Assembly: GCA_027022365.1 (NCBI GenBank)
Contig: JALVYU010000031.1
Coordinates: 320,001 to 384,000, forward strand
Length of the DNA stretch: 64,000 nucleotides
Direction: 5' to 3'
Source of the DNA: Desulfurococcales archaeon
GTDB lineage: Archaea > Thermoproteota > Thermoprotei_A > Sulfolobales > Desulfurococcaceae
The notes below the pieces were generated by a model. It was not told the DNA's origin. It saw nothing but the letters and a program-made list of their open reading frames with translations, and did not search any database. A program made the position numbers and the translations under genes. This document shows positions 55,570 through 64,000 of this stretch, piece after piece (position 1 is the stretch's first letter; the number at the start of each line of letters is the position of its first letter).

Positions 55570-56436
55570 GTGGCCCCCCATTCTAGGAAGAGAGCCCCAC
55601 ACATAGCGCTCATACTAGCACTCCTGCTGACCCTACCAGTACTAGTAGCGGTCAGCGTCCACGCCGCCAGCATGTACATATTCGGAACCGATAACCCGAG
55701 CCTAACATCACCAACGGAAAGCACATACATAGACAACCTACTAAATTGGATAAACAACGCCGCAAAATACGGTACCCACGGAGTCTCGAGCACAGTCGTC
55801 GATACCGGGGTGACGTCAGCCCAGATATTGTCCGCAGCGTCATCCGCGTCCGGCCCGGCGCTACTCTTCTTCGTCGGGCACGGCTACTATGAAACGATAA
55901 CCGTGGCTACCGGCACGTACACAATGTACTATATAGTCGACAACAATGAACAGCAAGTATACGATGAAGACATATATGAGCAGACGGCTGTAGGCAGATT
56001 CCACCTGGTATTCCTGCATTCCTGCTATCAGGGCCACGTCATAGGAGGAGTATTCAAGATAGGCGACTCCTACTACCACTACGGCATGCCACAGGCCTGG
56101 CTACATACATCCTTCCTATCCTCCAACGGCTACGGATCCCCAGACTACAGCGGCTACGTCTTCATAGGGTGGAGGAACGTGGCACCATTCTTGTCCTCCG
56201 ATATACTGGGCACCGATGATACGCTCTACAGGTTCATAGGGAACTTCTACGACAGCCTATTCGGATACTACACAGTAGCGGCACCAAGCGTTAACAAAGC
56301 GCTGGATTATGCTTCCCAAAAAGTGTTTGGACCTGGAATATTGTTTGGCGAATCACCGCTCTATAATGGCTTTGTTCTAGGTGGGATACAGACAAAAATG
56401 GTTGTGTATGGGGATGGGAGCTATGATGGCTGGTAG
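55570..56436 (+). CDS. Secreted protein with a clan CD (caspase/gingipain-like) His-Cys dyad
   Basis: Signal peptide; hydrophobic strand plus GHG (LLFFVGHG) and hydrophobic strand plus SC (LVFLHSCY); C-terminal MVVYGD. Confidence 0.7.
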   Translation: MAPHSRKRAPHIALILALLLTLPVLVAVSVHAASMYIFGTDNPSLTSPTESTYIDNLLNWINNAAKYGTHGVSSTVVDTGVTSAQILSAASSASGPALLFFVGHGYYETITVATGTYTMYYIVDNNEQQVYDEDIYEQTAVGRFHLVFLHSCYQGHVIGGVFKIGDSYYHYGMPQAWLHTSFLSSNGYGSPDYSGYVFIGWRNVAPFLSSDILGTDDTLYRFIGNFYDSLFGYYTVAAPSVNKALDYASQKVFGPGILFGESPLYNGFVLGGIQTKMVVYGDGSYDGW

Positions 56437-57694
56437 ATCCTCATATATCTTCGTATACGTTCTGGCCGCTATGATAGTCTTCTCGCTGCTCTCATACGGA
56501 GCGACGATCTCTGGTGCTAGTGAGGACGAGAACCAGTTCTTGAAGCCAGTGTTCATAGTCCTTAACAAGGTGTTGGGCTTCAACACGACCGGGTTCAGTG
56601 TCGCGCAGATCAGGTTTATGGGTGATGTCTACCCGGATAATCTGAAGAACATCTTCTCCTCTAACTACGATGTATTGTTGAAGAACGGGGAGAACTACAC
56701 GGTCTCTCTCGATGTTGTTTTGGTTAACCATGTGCTCGGGAGTGTAAAGTATCAGTTCTCGCTACCTCCACTTAGTGCTATTAGGCCTTTACCGAACATA
56801 ACTATGAAGAGTATCGGGAACCATGTATTGGTGAGCACTGGGTTCGTCAAGGAGTCTCTCCGCAGGGCCGCCGAGGTGATCCCGCTGATCTACGGTGATC
56901 ATGGGAGCCGCCTATACATGGTCATACGCCACACGCTCCAGAAGAGATTGCTGGGCCCATGGATCAGGGTATGGAATACCTCGGATGTGGATTACAAGAG
57001 ATATATGCGGCTGGAGGGCGATTACTGGCTAGAAGTACACTTGCTGTCCCCCACCCCGCTTGAACCGCAGGGCGCGGACGTCTACATATTTTACAGTGCT
57101 CGTCTCCCAATGGGTGTTAAGGCCAACTTCACGGTCATGCATATATCCATAATCAAGGAGAACGGCTCATGGATAATAAGCTCGTTCAGCGTGCCTCCGC
57201 AGTGCCTGAACATAAGGGTCTCCAGGTTCTCCGAGCCCCGTCACGATCTCGTGAAGAAGATGTTCGAGAAAGCCAGAACAGCGCTCGAGGCGTATCTCGA
57301 GAAGAACGGTATAGACGGCAAGATAGTGTCGATCAAGCCGTACAGCTGGGTATATCATTTAAAGGCCACCACGTATAGCCTAACCGTAATCCCGACAAAC
57401 ACGTCGATAATACTTGGAGTTGTTAAAACAAACAGTTCCACAATCTATTACGAGATAAAAGTTAACACCGAAACCCTCGTAAGTAGCGTGGAAACACTCG
57501 GAATACTAGGAAAACCCGTTGCTCCGGCTCACAGCGGCACAGCGACACCTGATGCGGGACAGCCAATGCCCTCTCAGCCCGAGTCTCAGGCGAACGGTTA
57601 TGGCATTCCGGTAAATACGGGGTTATGGGCTCTTGTTGCTGGGGCTGTCATAGTGTCTGTAGCCCTAGCCCTGTTAAGTCTTAAGAGAAAATAA
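56423..57694 (+). CDS. Membrane-anchored extracellular hypothetical protein
   Basis: Likely ATG at 56423 overlapping the upstream stop; N-terminal signal, P/Q-rich linker, C-terminal TM followed by KRK. Confidence 0.75.
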   Translation: MMAGRSSYIFVYVLAAMIVFSLLSYGATISGASEDENQFLKPVFIVLNKVLGFNTTGFSVAQIRFMGDVYPDNLKNIFSSNYDVLLKNGENYTVSLDVVLVNHVLGSVKYQFSLPPLSAIRPLPNITMKSIGNHVLVSTGFVKESLRRAAEVIPLIYGDHGSRLYMVIRHTLQKRLLGPWIRVWNTSDVDYKRYMRLEGDYWLEVHLLSPTPLEPQGADVYIFYSARLPMGVKANFTVMHISIIKENGSWIISSFSVPPQCLNIRVSRFSEPRHDLVKKMFEKARTALEAYLEKNGIDGKIVSIKPYSWVYHLKATTYSLTVIPTNTSIILGVVKTNSSTIYYEIKVNTETLVSSVETLGILGKPVAPAHSGTATPDAGQPMPSQPESQANGYGIPVNTGLWALVAGAVIVSVALALLSLKRK

Positions 57695-57821
57695 TTTTTT
57701 CCCTAGATCATCCCTTGATTGATTGTAATGGATTTTATGCGTGGTTCTTTATCCTAGATATTTTGAGATAATGTTAATATATTATTACGGCCTTATATTG
57801 TTCTGTCCAGGGTGTACATTT

Positions 57822-59087
57822 ATGGGTCTATGGGAATCCTACAAGAGATTCCCGGTGATCTATAAGATCCTTATCGGGTTCATCCTAGGCATCATTGCGG
57901 GGATTATAGTCGGTCCCGGTATTGCCGTGATCTATCCGCTGGGCACGCTATTGATCCGACTACTAAAGATGATCGTTGCACCCATTGTGCTGTTCTCACT
58001 AGTCGTTGGTGCCGCCAGTATAGCTCCTAAGAAGCTGGGAAAAATAGGTACAAAGATAATAATCTATTATCTAGCCACATCGGCTGTTGCAGTAGTGATA
58101 GGTATATTCATGGCGAGACTGTTCAACGTCGGTGCCGGCGTGAATCTCGTCAAGACCGGGGGAACACAGATCAAGGTCAGACAGCCGCCCAGCATTGTCG
58201 ATGTCCTCCTCAACATAGTCCCCACCAACCCATTCGCCGCGCTTACAGAGGGCAAGGTCCTCCAGATCATATTCTTCGCCATCGTTCTCGGCATAGCGCT
58301 CACCTACCTAATGAACAGTAAGAATGAGAGGCTAAGGAAGGCGGGCGAGACGACCTACCGTGTCTTCGACGGCCTGGCCGAGGCGATGTACAAGATAGTC
58401 AGGGGCATCCTAGAATACATGCCCATAGGAGTATTCGCGCTGATCGGCTATGTGGTTGCCAAGTATGGGCCGAAAATACTAGGTCCTCTAGCCATAGCTG
58501 TTGTAGCGCTCTATGTCGGCCTCTTCATACACATATTCCTGACCTATGGAGGTATACTCGCAGCCTTCAAACTAAACATCATCAAGTTCTTGAAGGGCGC
58601 CAAGGAGGCAATGCTGACAGCCTTCGTGACCAGGTCGTCATCAGGAACACTCCCAGTGACCATGAGGGTTGCGGATGAGAACCTCGGCGTTAAGAAGACG
58701 GTTTACTCGTTCACCCTACCACTTGGAGCAACGATCAACATGGACGGCACAGCTATGTACCAGGCAATAGCGACCTTCTTCATCGCCAACGCCCTAGGAA
58801 TACATCTAACCCTCGCCCAGCAGCTAATGATAGTAATGACAGCCGTACTGGCCTCGATAGGTACCGCTGGCGTACCGGGTGCAGGCCTTATAATGCTGGC
58901 GATGGTACTGCAGAGCGTCGGCCTACCCTTGACAGACCCTAACGTCGCGCTGGCCTACTCGATGATCGCAGGCATCGACGTCATACTAGACATGGGCAGG
59001 ACAATGGTCAATGTAACAGGAGACCTTGTAGGTACATCAATAGTTGCAAAGACGGAGGGAGAACTAGACCTGACCAAGTGGAAGTAA
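57822..59087 (+). CDS. gltP: Dicarboxylate/amino acid:cation symporter (GltPh-like aspartate/glutamate transporter)
   Basis: [61 protein letters not shown]. Confidence 0.95.
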
Positions 59088-59599: not shown

Positions 59600-62017
59600 T
59601 TACAGGCTACTCGACAGTTCCTTAATGATTTTCTCGGCCTGCTCCACTAACTGCTTGGCCTGCCCAACCATCTGCTGAGCAGCCGTTACATCGTCCTGCT
59701 TCAGCTTCTCCTCGGCCTTGTTCAGAAGCTGTGTCGCGTTGCCGAGTAGCTTGTATGCTTCTTCTATCATCTTCAGCGCTGTCTCGTTCTTCTCACGCTC
59801 GGCTTTTATCTTGAGCAGTGATAGTGTCTTGTTATCCTGGTAAATCTTGGCCTTCAGGGCCTTTATCTCGATCTCGAGCTGTACCTTAGCCTTTTCCTCG
59901 GCCGCCTTTATAAGTTTCTCCGCTTCGTCGACAAGCATCTTGGCCTCTATGATCTTGAGCTTTGCCTCGCCTACACATATTATAGCGTCAGCGGTCTTGT
60001 TCTCCCTGAGCATCTTCTCCGCATCGTCGAGCAGCTTCGATGCATTTACTAGTAGTTCTCTGGACTTGTTCAGTAGTTTCATCGCGTCCGTCACGTTGAG
60101 CTTCTCCGCTTCACTGTAAAGCTTGTCTATCCGTGTCATTGTCTTGTTGATGTCCTCCTTCATACTCTTGATAATCTTTTCCAGCTCCTGCTTAACTTTC
60201 TCCTCAACGTCCCTGATCATCTTCTTTACTTCCTCCATCTTCTTCTCAATCTTCTTGATCAGGTCCTTGACCATGTTGAGTATCTTGGCTGCATCGGTCA
60301 CGTTGCCTTGCTGGAGCGTCTTATTGGCTTCTTCAACCATTTTCAGTGCTTGCTGTAGAGTCTCGTTGAGCTCCGCGATCACCTTTTCTGCCTGGGTGGC
60401 ATTGATCTTCTCCGCCACCTGCATGAGCTTTGCTAGGGTCTTATTGTATTCTCTTAGTATTGTTATGGTCTTATTGATCTGGTTCTCGATGTCTATCTTG
60501 ACCTTCTTTACAGTCTCAATTACTCCTTCAGCAGTACTCATCGTAATGTTTACCTGTACGATGATCGAGTCTATCTTGTTGATTAATTGTAGCGCAACGG
60601 TCTCATTCACTTCTCCGTTCTTAACCATCTTCTCCAGCTCGGCATAGAGCTTCTTGGCCTCTTCCAGCATTTTCATTGCCTGCTTGATCATGTTTAATGC
60701 ATCGCTGCAGCCGCACTTCTCAGCTTCTTCAGCTATCTTCTTTAGATGTTTTTCGGCTTCCTCGATCCTAGTCTTTAGCTCCTTCAGCTTCTCAGCTACG
60801 TCCTTTACAATGTATTTAGCCGCGTTCTTCTCTATCATGCCCCATGCTTCGTGTAGCATTGTCTTTATCTCAGCCATTATTTTCAGTGCACCGGTGAGGT
60901 TGCCGTTCTCGATCATCTCCTCCGCTCTCATGGCTAGTCTGACCATTATCTTGTATTGCTCAATGGTCTTGTTTACCAGCTCATATAACCTCGTGTTATT
61001 AGTCTTGATCGCTTCTTCGCGTAGTCTCGCCAGGGCCTGGTTGAGGCTCCTGAGCCTATCCATTATCTCTTGTAGCGTCATGTTAGCTGTTTTCTTCACG
61101 GCTTCCTTCACGGCAGTTGCGTTGGCCGTCATATTTGTCTCTACATATACTTTAATTATCGGTATTGCCTGTTCGATGAGCTTCAGTGCTTGGCTCACAT
61201 GGGTTAGCGCCAGGTCTATTGATACGCTTATCTCCTTAGTCATATTGCTGATGGGGAGGCTCTTCTTGATTATTCTCAGTATGTCTACCGTCTTGTTTAG
61301 CTCGTGCATGGCCTTTATCATGAGCTTATAGGCTTCCTCTAGACTCTTGGTCTTCATCGTCGTGTTCACTGCTTGCAGCGACATAACCTCCACGGTGTCA
61401 GCGAATTCCCGGACATGCATGATCTTCGCTATATTGTCTACTTCTTTCACGACACTTATGATCTTCGCTGTGTTCCCGGTCTCTATTACCTTAGTTATAT
61501 TAACATATAGCTCGTGTAAGAGCTCCTTGTACTGCGTTGAAAGAGTCTTGTTGAGGCTCGCGATCACCTGGTCGACGATGGTCTTGATCACAGTCATGGT
61601 GACGTTTGATGGAGTGGTCTTTTCCAGGATGATAGCTAGTTCATGGTATACGGTGTTCTCCTCCGAAACCAGTTTCTCGAGCTGATCTACTGTCATGCTG
61701 TTTATCTTCATTGTAGAGATGCTGATCAGCTCCTTAACCTTACTCCTGAGGTCTTCTGGAATACTTGAAGCGTTGAGCGACCTATACGCCTTCTCGATCA
61801 TTATCTTCAGGAGTATTGCTTGGCTCCTCAGCACAGTCGCGTTTACGAGTGGACCGGGCTGTGTCTGCCCGTATGCCTGGATCCCGGCCGCCCACGTCAG
61901 AGTGGTTGCCGGGAGCAGAGATAACATTATTAGTGTTAGGACCATAATTGATCCTAGTAGCTTATACACGGCCTTCACGCCTCTCACCTCACCCCCTTTC
62001 TCTCTGTTCAAAACCAT
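59600..62017 (-). CDS. Large secreted alpha-helical repeat (coiled-coil/spectrin-like) protein
   Basis: Signal peptide, about five ~100-aa helical repeats, many NxT/S sequons. The true start may be the GTG at 61978 after a GAGGTGA RBS. Confidence 0.85.
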   Translation of the reverse strand: MVLNREKGGEVRGVKAVYKLLGSIMVLTLIMLSLLPATTLTWAAGIQAYGQTQPGPLVNATVLRSQAILLKIMIEKAYRSLNASSIPEDLRSKVKELISISTMKINSMTVDQLEKLVSEENTVYHELAIILEKTTPSNVTMTVIKTIVDQVIASLNKTLSTQYKELLHELYVNITKVIETGNTAKIISVVKEVDNIAKIMHVREFADTVEVMSLQAVNTTMKTKSLEEAYKLMIKAMHELNKTVDILRIIKKSLPISNMTKEISVSIDLALTHVSQALKLIEQAIPIIKVYVETNMTANATAVKEAVKKTANMTLQEIMDRLRSLNQALARLREEAIKTNNTRLYELVNKTIEQYKIMVRLAMRAEEMIENGNLTGALKIMAEIKTMLHEAWGMIEKNAAKYIVKDVAEKLKELKTRIEEAEKHLKKIAEEAEKCGCSDALNMIKQAMKMLEEAKKLYAELEKMVKNGEVNETVALQLINKIDSIIVQVNITMSTAEGVIETVKKVKIDIENQINKTITILREYNKTLAKLMQVAEKINATQAEKVIAELNETLQQALKMVEEANKTLQQGNVTDAAKILNMVKDLIKKIEKKMEEVKKMIRDVEEKVKQELEKIIKSMKEDINKTMTRIDKLYSEAEKLNVTDAMKLLNKSRELLVNASKLLDDAEKMLRENKTADAIICVGEAKLKIIEAKMLVDEAEKLIKAAEEKAKVQLEIEIKALKAKIYQDNKTLSLLKIKAEREKNETALKMIEEAYKLLGNATQLLNKAEEKLKQDDVTAAQQMVGQAKQLVEQAEKIIKELSSSL

Positions 62018-62027
62018 ATAAGAATCC

Positions 62028-62058
62028 CCGTGAAACCCGCCGTGAAACCCGTGAAACC
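62028..62058. promoter_or_regulatory. Three direct repeats CCGTGAAACC in the divergent promoter
   Basis: Exact copies at 62028, 62040 and 62049, next to TATAAATA at 62068-62075. Confidence 0.8.
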
Positions 62059-62131
62059 AGGTAATGCTATAAATACCGATACTTATTATTCACGTTAAGA
62101 AATACAGTGTATCTGGAGGTATGTTCAAAAC

Positions 62132-63070
62132 ATGTTGATTAGAAATTCGATATTAGTAATTTACGCAGCGCTCGTTATCGGGCTCCTTGTAGCCGCGCTA
62201 CCTCAAGTCACGGCGCAACAGAGCTACAGTGCAGAGATAATAATTGATTCTAATGGCGTGGTAAAAGTAGTAATTAACGGTACCGCCGTCTCCGGGCTTA
62301 ACAAGTACCCTGCCCCCGTCGACCCGATCATATCTACGATGACCGCCATGCTTAACGGGAAGGAAGTCGCGTCAATATACGTTAACAAGACAATATATAT
62401 AGCAACCACAGCTAACGGCACAATACAGATACAATACATAGGAAACATCACGAGCAACAACAACTATCTCGAATTCAACATAAACAATATAGGAGCACCC
62501 GTAAAGATAGTCTTATCCCCCAACATAGTCCTCCTCAGCATACCAAGCAACATCATAAGCGTTAGAAACATCGATGGGAAACTAGTAATGGTTATACTCC
62601 CACCGGCCACGATAAAGTACACGATCACGAAGACCGTGCAGACAGCCACGCCCGTGCCGACCGGGACTGCTTCGGCGGCACCGCCACAGCAGACAACGTC
62701 TACTCCCGTATCAAAGAGTCAGTCCGGGGGGCAGAACACCGGCGCGTCGCCCGGACAGCCCATCGTTCCCACGACAACCACCTATATCGTGGCAGCGATT
62801 ATCGCTGCGGCCGTGATTGGTGTAGCGGTATATTATTTCAAAAAGACAAGGGCGGCGAATATCCCCGACATACTAGATAGGGCTGACAAGATGATCCTCG
62901 AAGAGATAAGAAGAGCTGGAGGGACTATAATGCAGGGCGAGCTCCAGAAGATCCTCGGCTTCCCCAAAGCCACGCTATGGAGAAGGGTTAAGAAGCTCGC
63001 CCAGCTCGGTTTTTTAGAGATCGTCAAGGAAGGGAACTCTAATAGGTTAATACTAAAAAAGAAAATATAA
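62132..63070 (+). CDS. Membrane-anchored winged helix-turn-helix regulator (COG2512-like)
   Basis: Signal peptide, beta-rich ectodomain, T/P/S/Q linker, TM YIVAAIIAAAVIGVAVYYF, C-terminal wHTH GGTIMQGELQKILGFPKATLWRRVKKLAQLGFLEI. Confidence 0.88.
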   Translation: MLIRNSILVIYAALVIGLLVAALPQVTAQQSYSAEIIIDSNGVVKVVINGTAVSGLNKYPAPVDPIISTMTAMLNGKEVASIYVNKTIYIATTANGTIQIQYIGNITSNNNYLEFNINNIGAPVKIVLSPNIVLLSIPSNIISVRNIDGKLVMVILPPATIKYTITKTVQTATPVPTGTASAAPPQQTTSTPVSKSQSGGQNTGASPGQPIVPTTTTYIVAAIIAAAVIGVAVYYFKKTRAANIPDILDRADKMILEEIRRAGGTIMQGELQKILGFPKATLWRRVKKLAQLGFLEIVKEGNSNRLILKKKI

Positions 63071-63332: not shown

Positions 63333-64000
63333 GTGATACTAATAGTTCTCGGGATACTGGTGCTGGTTCTCCTGTATGGTCTGCTGACATTTGAGGTAAT
63401 GCATCGCACGGCTGCAGCGATATTTGTTGCCGGCATTATTCTTGTGCTTAATCTTGTTTTCCACTTCATGGAGTATACCGATATATTGGGCGGTATCGAC
63501 ATAGATACTATTCTCCTGCTTATGAACATGATGATCATAGTCGGCATCCTTGGTAAGACAGGGTTGTTCGAGTACTTATCGCTCCAGCTGGTCATGAGCT
63601 TCAAGGACAAGCCTTACAGGCTCCTCCTGATCCTCCTCATACTCACCGGTGTCGTGAGTGCTTTCATAGATAACGTGACAACAGTGCTCCTCATAGCCCC
63701 TGTAATCATCGATGTGTTCGAAGAGATAGGCGTCACCCCTGTCCCGGCCCTCTTGGGGATAGTTTTCGCGAGCAATATTGGTGGAACTGCGACCCTGATA
63801 GGTGATCCGCCCAACATACTGATAGGGAGCATGGCGGACATAGGGTTCATGCAGTTCATATATAATCTAACACCAATAGTATTTGTCGACCTCCTAGTCC
63901 TCACAGCGATACTCCCCTACCTGTTCAGGGGATGGTATAGGGAATATTGTGAAAAACTCGGGAGAATCGACGATGAAGTACTGTATAAGAAGCTCAAACT
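63333..64000 (+). CDS. ArsB/NhaD/SLC13 (ion transporter superfamily) permease, partial
   Basis: Not in the ORF track. Translated from GTG 63333: HRTAAA, IDIDTILLL.NMMIIV..L.KTGLFEYL, SAFIDNVTTVLL, ASNIGGTATLIGDPPNILIG. Confidence 0.9.
   Translation, partial: MILIVLGILVLVLLYGLLTFEVMHRTAAAIFVAGIILVLNLVFHFMEYTDILGGIDIDTILLLMNMMIIVGILGKTGLFEYLSLQLVMSFKDKPYRLLLILLILTGVVSAFIDNVTTVLLIAPVIIDVFEEIGVTPVPALLGIVFASNIGGTATLIGDPPNILIGSMADIGFMQFIYNLTPIVFVDLLVLTAILPYLFRGWYREYCEKLGRIDDEVLYKKLK

Follow-up and report, generated by a model that had tools for sequence, protein, structure and literature searches.

How a cell without two-component systems lets its surroundings act on transcription is the question raised by a locus in the genome of a Desulfurococcales archaeon, where the gene for a predicted membrane-tethered regulator is divergent from the gene for a large secreted, helix-rich protein (here called the rod) and three short direct repeats lie between the two. 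Histidine kinases and response regulators are reported as absent from all of 44 finished crenarchaeal genomes (PMC5847659). The locus occupies positions 59600 to 63070 of the stretch of DNA analysed here, the window (64,000 nt; G000:C31:320001-384000), which belongs to a genome of 1.74 Mb with 45% G+C. The stretch is contained in 11 DNA runs from five studies, which are hydrothermal-vent metagenomes, and in no listed RNA run; close kin in public records are labelled as Desulfurococcales metagenome-assembled genomes (MAGs). From comparative sequence evidence we think it likely, though well short of certain, that the regulator is a transmembrane one-component system acting on its neighbour's promoter from the membrane.

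The regulator gene (62132-63070, + strand) encodes 312 residues plus a stop. An earlier reading of the locus, made from the sequence only, had proposed an outside beta domain, a Thr/Pro/Ser linker, a single transmembrane (TM) helix and a cytoplasmic winged helix-turn-helix (wHTH) domain, and this build is confirmed by hydropathy, by an AlphaFold2 (AF2) model built with 15 orthologues and by a match to the Pfam family HTH_24. The N-terminal signal peptide or first hydrophobic segment covers residues 1-28 (62132-62215, +; ...VTA/QQ; AF2 helix 2-22), and its A-x-A-like VTA motif suggests cleavage. An extracytoplasmic all-beta domain follows (residues 31-166; 62222-62629, +), modelled as strands only with a predicted local distance difference test score (pLDDT) above 90 and holding four NxS/T sequons, and then a disordered stalk rich in Thr, Pro, Ser and Gln (residues 169-213; 62636-62770, +; pLDDT 36-39), the length of which is highly variable between orthologues. 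The single TM helix (residues 214-237; 62771-62842, +; a hydrophobic segment, AF2 helix 214-242) is kept in all 15 aligned orthologues and is followed by KKTR. By the established positive-inside rule, the basic residues after this helix place the C-terminus in the cytoplasm, and an N-out, C-in topology fits both these residues and the four sequons of the beta domain. In the model the TM helix is the only helix ahead of the wHTH, which would lie about 10 residues beneath the membrane on the cytoplasmic side, and the protein terminates at the wing. As modelled, the regulator is a type-I membrane protein with a glycosylated beta domain held outside on a Thr/Pro stalk.

The wHTH (residues 247-312, AF2 fold 250-308; 62870-63067, +), with the recognition helix PKATLWRRVKKL, matches HTH_24 with 30.1 bits against a cut-off of 21.9 (E = 3.5e-7). 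Two further families stay below the Pfam gathering score (MarR_2, 24.6 against 27; MarR, 17.1 against 24.6), as does DUF7343 (22.7 bits, under the cut-off of 27.6); P0011, a relative with 40% identity, has PF24034 among its precomputed hits. VIA-align superposes 65 residues on MarR structures with Z 11.4-11.9 and a root-mean-square deviation (rmsd) of 1.1 Å (3bpx, 3vod and the MarR-DNA complex 5h3r). No part of the protein is better conserved than the wHTH, its recognition helix most of all, in lineages where the ectodomains are 26-40% identical. The pattern P[KR]xT[LI]WR is found in 26 of 26 listed orthologues, the same pattern having served as the search, and a basic, well-conserved [RH][VI]xxL stands directly after it. 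For the ectodomain, no Pfam or NCBIfam family matches were obtained. Foldseek gave weak similarity to the beta domain at the N-terminus of M1 aminopeptidases and LTA4H (E = 4.6e-5 to 2.7e-4, but TMq 0.19-0.31 and rmsd 5-9 Å), and the two VIA-align lists for the regulator were taken up by matches to its wHTH. The 15-orthologue alignment contains no invariant polar residues in the ectodomain that would hint at catalysis.

Between the two genes, three exact copies of CCGTGAAACC are found at 62028-62037, 62040-62049 and 62049-62058 (together 62028-62058, +), with 21 bp (12 + 9) from the first to the third, as the earlier reading had stated. On the rod strand they read as three GTTTCAC directed at the TATA-like box of the rod gene. 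When one mismatch is allowed, the window holds 8 matches to CCGTGAAACC against 2.02 expected, a number reached in none of 100 shuffles. Two GTGAAACC within 40 bp occur only at this locus in the whole 1.74-Mb genome, and pairs of TGAAAC within 24 bp occur in very few places genome-wide, this locus among them. The seven further single copies of CCGTGAAACC in the genome all lie within open frames of 186-1033 codons. The other genomic TGAAAC pairs are coding, except for two TTGAAACTA with 9-bp spacing at G000:C26:81509-81526, the only other intergenic pair, which adjoins recombinase/integrase-like open reading frames (ORFs).

The repeats are flanked by candidate promoters on both sides. The TATA-like box proposed for the rod gene (62014-62022, −) reads CCATATAAG on the + strand and CTTATATGG on the − strand and lies 7 nt from the nearest repeat; its equivalents in relatives, TCTTAAAAAG, CCTAAAAAGG, CTATATAAGG and CCCTAATATC, follow the last site in divergent and tandem layouts alike. 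For the regulator, the proposed TATA box is TATAAATA (62068-62075, +), 10 nt from the third repeat. Two other genera have TTTTAAG boxes at the same 10-nt distance, and GGAGG is present at 62115-62119, upstream of the regulator ATG. The repeats are thus placed, as far as sequence can tell, in the space between two outward-facing divergent TATA-like boxes, one for the rod and one for the regulator. Archaeal TATA boxes are centred about 26-27 nt ahead of the start site, and a transcription start site (TSS) is therefore predicted near 61992 for the rod and near 62098 for the regulator. With a TSS near 61992, the rod leader would be short and would contain a Shine-Dalgarno-like element.

This geometry differs from that of the sequence-only reading. 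The box at 62068-62075 which it had noticed is indeed present, but it was assigned to the rod, and by comparison with relatives it faces the regulator. The repeats had been laid over a start site downstream of that box, a position that does not hold, since relatives put them upstream of the CCATATAAG box facing the rod. The spacer of 114 bp presumed a rod start at the ATG at 62017, which falls within the TATA-like box; a start at the GTG at 61978, 13 codons downstream, gives a spacer of about 153 bp. The GTG is preceded by the Shine-Dalgarno-like GGTGAGGTGA at 61984-61993 (−), and rod orthologues of other genera have shorter N-termini that begin near the hydrophobic segment. For these reasons the GTG at 61978 is taken as the start. 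The open frame from the ATG has 805 codons (59600-62017, −), the length of the database versions P0160-P0164 being 804-806 residues, which fits the upstream ATG; the database start is probably mis-called by 13 codons. Read further upstream of 62017, the rod frame translates the repeats as GFHGFHGGFHG. Two copies of GTTCAAAAC noted at the spacer ends are present at 62006 and 62123, but the pair is not conserved: the second copy is altered in four of four congeners examined (ATTCGAAAC twice, AATCGAAAC and ATTCAAAAC), and 2 of 100 shuffles of the window also held two copies. The pair is probably a product of chance.

If the TATA box at 62068-62075 served the rod gene, the repeats would enter the rod 5' untranslated region and might act at the RNA level; alternatively, they could be a recent tandem duplication with no function. 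Rod-strand RNA from 62066 to 61976 folds no better than its shuffles (z = −0.42, equalled by 63 of 200), and no Rfam match was found at E ≤ 1. Moreover, the number, spacing and position of the repeats are conserved between genera whose regulators are 41-43% identical, core and phasing are conserved across classes, and in tandem loci the element stands upstream of a TATA-like box. We consider both explanations very improbable.

The comparative evidence comes from 61 named regulator loci collected with the peptide pattern PK[AT]TLWR[HR][VI]. In 44 of them the match extends into the ectodomain, and these 44 are the full-length set used for counts of the gene pair. Many of the loci are related (about a dozen are Wolframiiraptor-type, for example), so the figures describe a pattern and are not probabilities. 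(A/G)TGAAAC is present three times at the identical 12 + 9 spacing in the four congeners examined (G001, G002, G004 and G005) and in two other genera, with regulators 43% and 41% identical and with the same flanking boxes, and a G(A/G)AAC core is enriched across 22 lineages. In tandem loci, the sites lie between the regulator stop and the rod start, and the regulator's own upstream region is without them. In such loci, for instance, ATGAAAC-ACTA-GTTTCAC precedes CTATATAAGG, three TTGTTCC at 11 + 11 bp precede CCTTAATA, and GGAAC-N5-GGAAC-N3-GATTCC-N3-GATTCC precedes CTAATATC. In three loci (L071, L075 and L080) the site cluster is 2.6 kb from the regulator and immediately upstream of a rod-like gene, which indicates that the sites travel with the rod promoter.

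Per 140 nt of rod-upstream sequence, 26 loci average 3.15 copies of G[AG]AAC/GTT[CT]C; for 1771 control windows taken from these loci the mean is 0.43. At least three sites are found in 21 of the 26 rod-upstream regions as opposed to 1.7% of controls. The two loci with zero sites have over-long ORF starts; L039 gives three sites after correction of the start, and the spacer of L043 contains GGAAAC, GGAAC and GTTCC. An unbiased ranking of 5-mers over 22 representatives with regulators less than 50% identical puts GAAAC first (2.0 against 0.153 per 100 nt, 13-fold) and GGAAC second (9-fold). Of 42 spacings between neighbouring sites of like orientation, 33 fall in the range 9-12 bp, and 10 bp is the commonest value. 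In most lineages, 5-8 nt (about 7 nt) separate the end of the promoter-proximal site from a TATA-like box downstream, and whatever the lineage these sites point the same way, with GTT[T/C]C facing the TATA. The near-invariant recognition helix spans the same lineages as the conserved site core.

The gene pair is conserved along with the sites. Full-length regulator orthologues are 84-69% identical within the genus, 43% and 41% in other genera of the family and 36-26% across the order, and at all these distances (84-26%) they have the same build. With the profile of 15 orthologues, the number of cluster representatives retrieved is 2063 at E ≤ 1e-3, 584 at E ≤ 1e-10 and 114 at E ≤ 1e-30; most are 280-400 residues long. 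In an even sample of the phylum, a regulator match at E ≤ 1e-20 is present in 105 of 401 genomes and 44 of 162 genera, with a patchy distribution over families. Carriers include Desulfurococcales, Pyrodictiaceae, Hyperthermus MAGs, Ca. Wolframiiraptor and Ca. Geothermarchaeum, and there is a cultured one, Thermocladium modestius JCM 10088. The rod sequences themselves diverge fast, and phmmer (E ≤ 1e-3) finds a rod next to the regulator in 11 loci from relatives. Beyond these 11, a neighbour is called rod-like by composition and position only, the composition being defined by a hydrophobic segment at the N-terminus, helix-formers at a fraction of 0.50-0.69 and between 7 and 43 sequons. With this definition, 31 of the 44 full-length loci have an adjacent signal-peptide, helix-rich and sequon-rich neighbour, either tandem downstream or divergent; the rod-like gene is one gene away in three more, absent from the flank in six, and four loci end at a contig edge. 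Judged by these sequence comparisons, regulator, secreted helical protein and repeat element form one conserved unit of Thermoproteota.

The commonest form of the pair is a tandem, operon-like layout, and this would also suit a purely structural pair, in which the ectodomain-TM protein anchors or chaperones the rod, the wHTH is vestigial or has another role, and a soluble factor binds the sites. A three-gene form points the same way. In L071:4825-7374, L075:2942-5498 and L080:4828-7619 the regulator converges on an operon-like pair, which consists of a rod-like gene (603-611 residues, 20-23 sequons) and, co-oriented directly behind it, an ectodomain+TM paralogue that has no wHTH. The profile search yields many such ectodomain+TM-only proteins of about 210-250 residues, and the rod is without a membrane anchor of its own. 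Nevertheless, a vestigial wHTH is not expected to be the best-conserved part of the regulator, in lineages where the ectodomains have drifted so far. Conservation of the site core reaches equally far, no second such cluster exists in the genome, and an anchoring role of the ectodomain is compatible with regulation. A pair with a structural role only is, in our judgement, improbable.

Two other groups of genes touch on the regulator family. A second, distantly related ectodomain-TM-wHTH protein of 350 residues (E = 7.5e-6 to the regulator; G000:C26:19227-21659, part of which is covered by L002) is encoded directly downstream of, and on the same strand as, a signal-peptide protein of 413 residues, and has relatives in most genomes of the family. 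By sequence, the design of a sensor-regulator with a secreted neighbour may occur twice in this genome. In seven Wolframiiraptor-type loci (L059, L060, L062, L066, L070, L079 and L085), a gene for about 308-314 residues is divergent from the regulator, about 100 bp upstream. These divergent genes begin with the same zinc-ribbon-like N-terminus, and the one copy scanned, in L060, matches Peptidase_M48 (5.9e-23).

In the mechanism that we favour, several copies of the regulator in the plane of the membrane would bind the phased G(A/G)AAC sites, which at this locus are three GTGAAAC at 12 + 9 bp. These sites occupy the interval between the two predicted divergent core promoters and border on the region of the TATA box and transcription factor B recognition element (BRE) of the rod. 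Their occupancy would set rod transcription and, in the divergent layout, would probably also influence the promoter of the regulator itself. DNA binding or oligomerisation would be governed by the state of the ectodomain. The wHTH itself presumably binds the sites and acts while membrane-bound, and a phasing of about 10 bp would be required if a row of DNA-binding heads reached the DNA from the same side. The target appears to be local, as this is the only such site cluster in the genome. The comparisons thus support the one-component circuit with a local target that the sequence-only reading had imagined, although not its geometry of repression by occlusion of the start site.

A position just upstream of the TATA box and touching it is where archaeal activators act, and the regulator might help TFB and TBP onto a promoter whose BRE position is occupied by the operator. 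A repressor could equally block TFB there, and the same players can be arranged for repression: the tethered wHTH array would cover the BRE by the rod TATA and block TFB until an outside signal or proteolysis releases it. The promoter-proximal site, 5-8 nt from the TATA-like box, overlaps the BRE position in most lineages, and MarR-type wHTH proteins are mostly repressors. The divergent layout also puts the array 10 nt from the regulator's own TATA, from which negative autoregulation would follow; autoregulation is not a conserved feature, however, because the regulator promoters of tandem loci are without sites. The single orientation of the proximal sites suggests an oriented contact with the initiation machinery in place of simple occlusion, which is a weak argument, and ArnR and ArnR1, the only characterised archaeal membrane-bound regulators, are activators (PMC6396743). 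The orientation of the proximal sites and the precedent of ArnR and ArnR1, with their upstream boxes, tip a weak preference slightly towards activation. Repression by the tethered array is a serious possibility, to which we give a smaller probability. Were proteolytic release involved, the Peptidase_M48 neighbour mentioned above could bear on it; the loci that carry it are close kin.

Several points weigh against regulation of the rod by the membrane-bound wHTH. Gene adjacency and a conserved promoter element are also expected if a different, soluble factor bound the sites, and no covariation was detected between the recognition helix and the GAAAC or GGAAC variant of the site. Five Ignisphaera loci and L078 have a regulator with neither a rod nor a site cluster in the flank. 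The distant homologues L114-L116, L119, L120 and L126 (E = 1e-34 to 1e-47), which come from other families and have ectodomains with 9-11 sequons, likewise show neither a rod-like gene nor a G(A/G)AAC cluster in the surrounding 4 kb or so; the regulator family probably has other targets elsewhere. The promoter assignments rest on TATA-like boxes and spacing, and a site abutting the TATA fits repression by BRE occlusion as well as activation. The wHTH is without the dimerisation helices of MarR. The kinship of many loci means that the conservation counts overstate independence, and the motif G(A/G)AAC was initially set by eye on the same loci, with the 5-mer ranking as the sole unbiased check.

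Membrane-bound transcription regulators as such are known. A survey of 404 archaeal species describes transmembrane transcription regulators as common in archaea (PMC10269533), and the regulator has the features by which that survey defines the class, a predicted DNA-binding domain and at least one TM region in one protein. By these features of its sequence it belongs to the class. Regulation of transcription from within the membrane, which also marks the class, would be its proposed role. It resembles ToxR, TcpP and CadC in that one polypeptide extends from a domain outside the cytoplasm through one TM helix to a wHTH inside, a class that acts at a nearby promoter from the membrane. Direct repeats about a helical turn apart are the binding sites of ToxR-type proteins, and ToxS and TcpH are co-encoded periplasmic partners. 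In contrast to ToxR and CadC, the order of the archaeal protein is reversed, with the N-terminus outside behind a signal peptide and the wHTH at the C-terminus; its wHTH is of the MarR/Lrp (HTH_24) type and not of the OmpR type (Trans_reg_C, no match at E ≤ 0.1). The setting is a TBP/TFB promoter of an archaeon, and the partner, a large helical glycoprotein that is secreted, would have a regulated promoter of its own.

Closer in taxonomy are ArnR and ArnR1 of Sulfolobus acidocaldarius, both membrane-bound activators, whose boxes lie between −43 and −84 relative to a surface-structure gene (PMC6396743). ArnR is described there as oligomerising and as binding repeated boxes upstream of BRE and TATA. 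Like the present regulator, it is a membrane-bound one-component regulator of Thermoproteota, and it controls genes for cell-surface structures. ArnR carries its HTH at the N-terminus, together with a HAMP-like domain and a sensor domain in the cytoplasm; two TM helices lie at its C-terminus, and it is without a large domain outside the cell (PMC6396743), whereas the present regulator has a C-terminal HTH, no HAMP hit and one TM helix after an outside domain. The ArnR boxes given there are inverted repeats, TCGAC-N5-GTCGA (PMC6396743), and past the HTH class there is no sequence relation. With domain order, wHTH type and accessory domains all differing, the regulator is neither of the ToxR/CadC type nor of the ArnR type.

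The DNA-binding domain itself has familiar relatives. Over its last 65 residues the regulator can be superposed on MarR wHTH domains, DNA complexes among them, with rmsd 1.1-1.3 Å and Z 11.3-11.9, and by sequence its nearest solved counterparts are Lrp-type HTH domains of archaea (PH0140, E = 8.8e-7). The MarR family, however, consists of soluble dimers of about 140-150 residues with flanking dimerisation helices, and the regulator has neither these helices nor the RAM domain of Lrp, and is anchored in the membrane. Literature searches by family name and keyword found nothing on COG2512, DUF7343, the rod partner or the operator, with the qualification that the supplementary lists of the transmembrane-regulator survey may include family members (PMC10269533). 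The proposal that the system is undescribed therefore holds in part: the regulator family, its partner and its operator appear undescribed, but the class of membrane-bound regulators is known from ToxR and ArnR, and documented in archaea.

The rod gene (59600-61978, −) encodes 792 residues from the GTG and is single-copy in the genome. Its frame was recognised in the sequence-only reading as that of a divergent secreted protein, and it is real by its signal-like N-terminus, its 30 NxS/T sequons, which make it rich in potential N-glycosylation sites, and its all-alpha model. The signal-peptide-like N-terminus (residues 1-31, ...TWAAG; 61886-61978, −) is the sole hydrophobic segment, and hydropathy detects no C-terminal or other membrane anchor. 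The all-alpha body (59606-61840, −) is modelled by AF2 with a mean pLDDT of 83.3. From residue 361 onwards, helices of 62-67 residues alternate with helices of about 29 residues at a period of about 101 residues, and from these modelled helix lengths we infer a chain of helical bundles. The alternation resembles linked three-helix bundles, in the manner of spectrin- or vinculin-like chains; spectrin repeats are three-helix bundles of about 106 residues. No significant match of the rod to a known sequence or structure was found. Its N-terminal region of about 150 residues is conserved. Foldseek finds nothing in the PDB at E ≤ 0.001, the top rows being non-significant vinculin chains (4.6e-3), and a profile search against the PDB gives only designed helical bundles and similar compositional matches. 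The rod has no Pfam or NCBIfam hits above cut-off and no internal self-similarity by BLAST. The best scores in the ESM Atlas (0.83) belong to archaeal clusters and are uninformative. As a long all-alpha extracellular glycoprotein, the rod has a likeness to tetrabrachion and SlaB, which are archaeal surface stalks.

The rod is a candidate ligand of the ectodomain, because it is anchorless, ectodomain-only paralogues are widespread and one such paralogue stands operon-like behind a rod. In an extension of the favoured mechanism, the regulator would double as a membrane dock, with the anchorless rod bound to the ectodomain and unoccupied docks read out by the wHTH array. This extension is speculative and we rate it as rather unlikely. 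If it were true, one protein alone would measure how far a surface structure is assembled and adjust its synthesis, without help from a kinase, a second messenger or a soluble factor, and paralogues that lost the wHTH would serve purely as docks.

The surroundings of the pair contain a CitMHS-type transporter gene downstream of the regulator (63333-63998, +), in a synteny kept within the genus only. On the other side, two genes from the rod and past a sodium:dicarboxylate symporter gene (57741-59087), lies a gene (56381-57694, +) for a protein of 437 residues with a signal-like N-terminus, a C-terminal TM helix followed by KRK, and no Pfam family; nothing ties it to the module.

The module is of real interest because it is widespread among organisms without two-component systems, and because its protein, its operator, which has a clear grammar, and its target are all defined, which makes it a concrete and experimentally tractable case. 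The phasing of about 10 bp beside the TATA box provides a testable rule for how a factor fixed in the membrane addresses DNA. The module also draws attention to a family of large helical glycoproteins that hyperthermophiles secrete.

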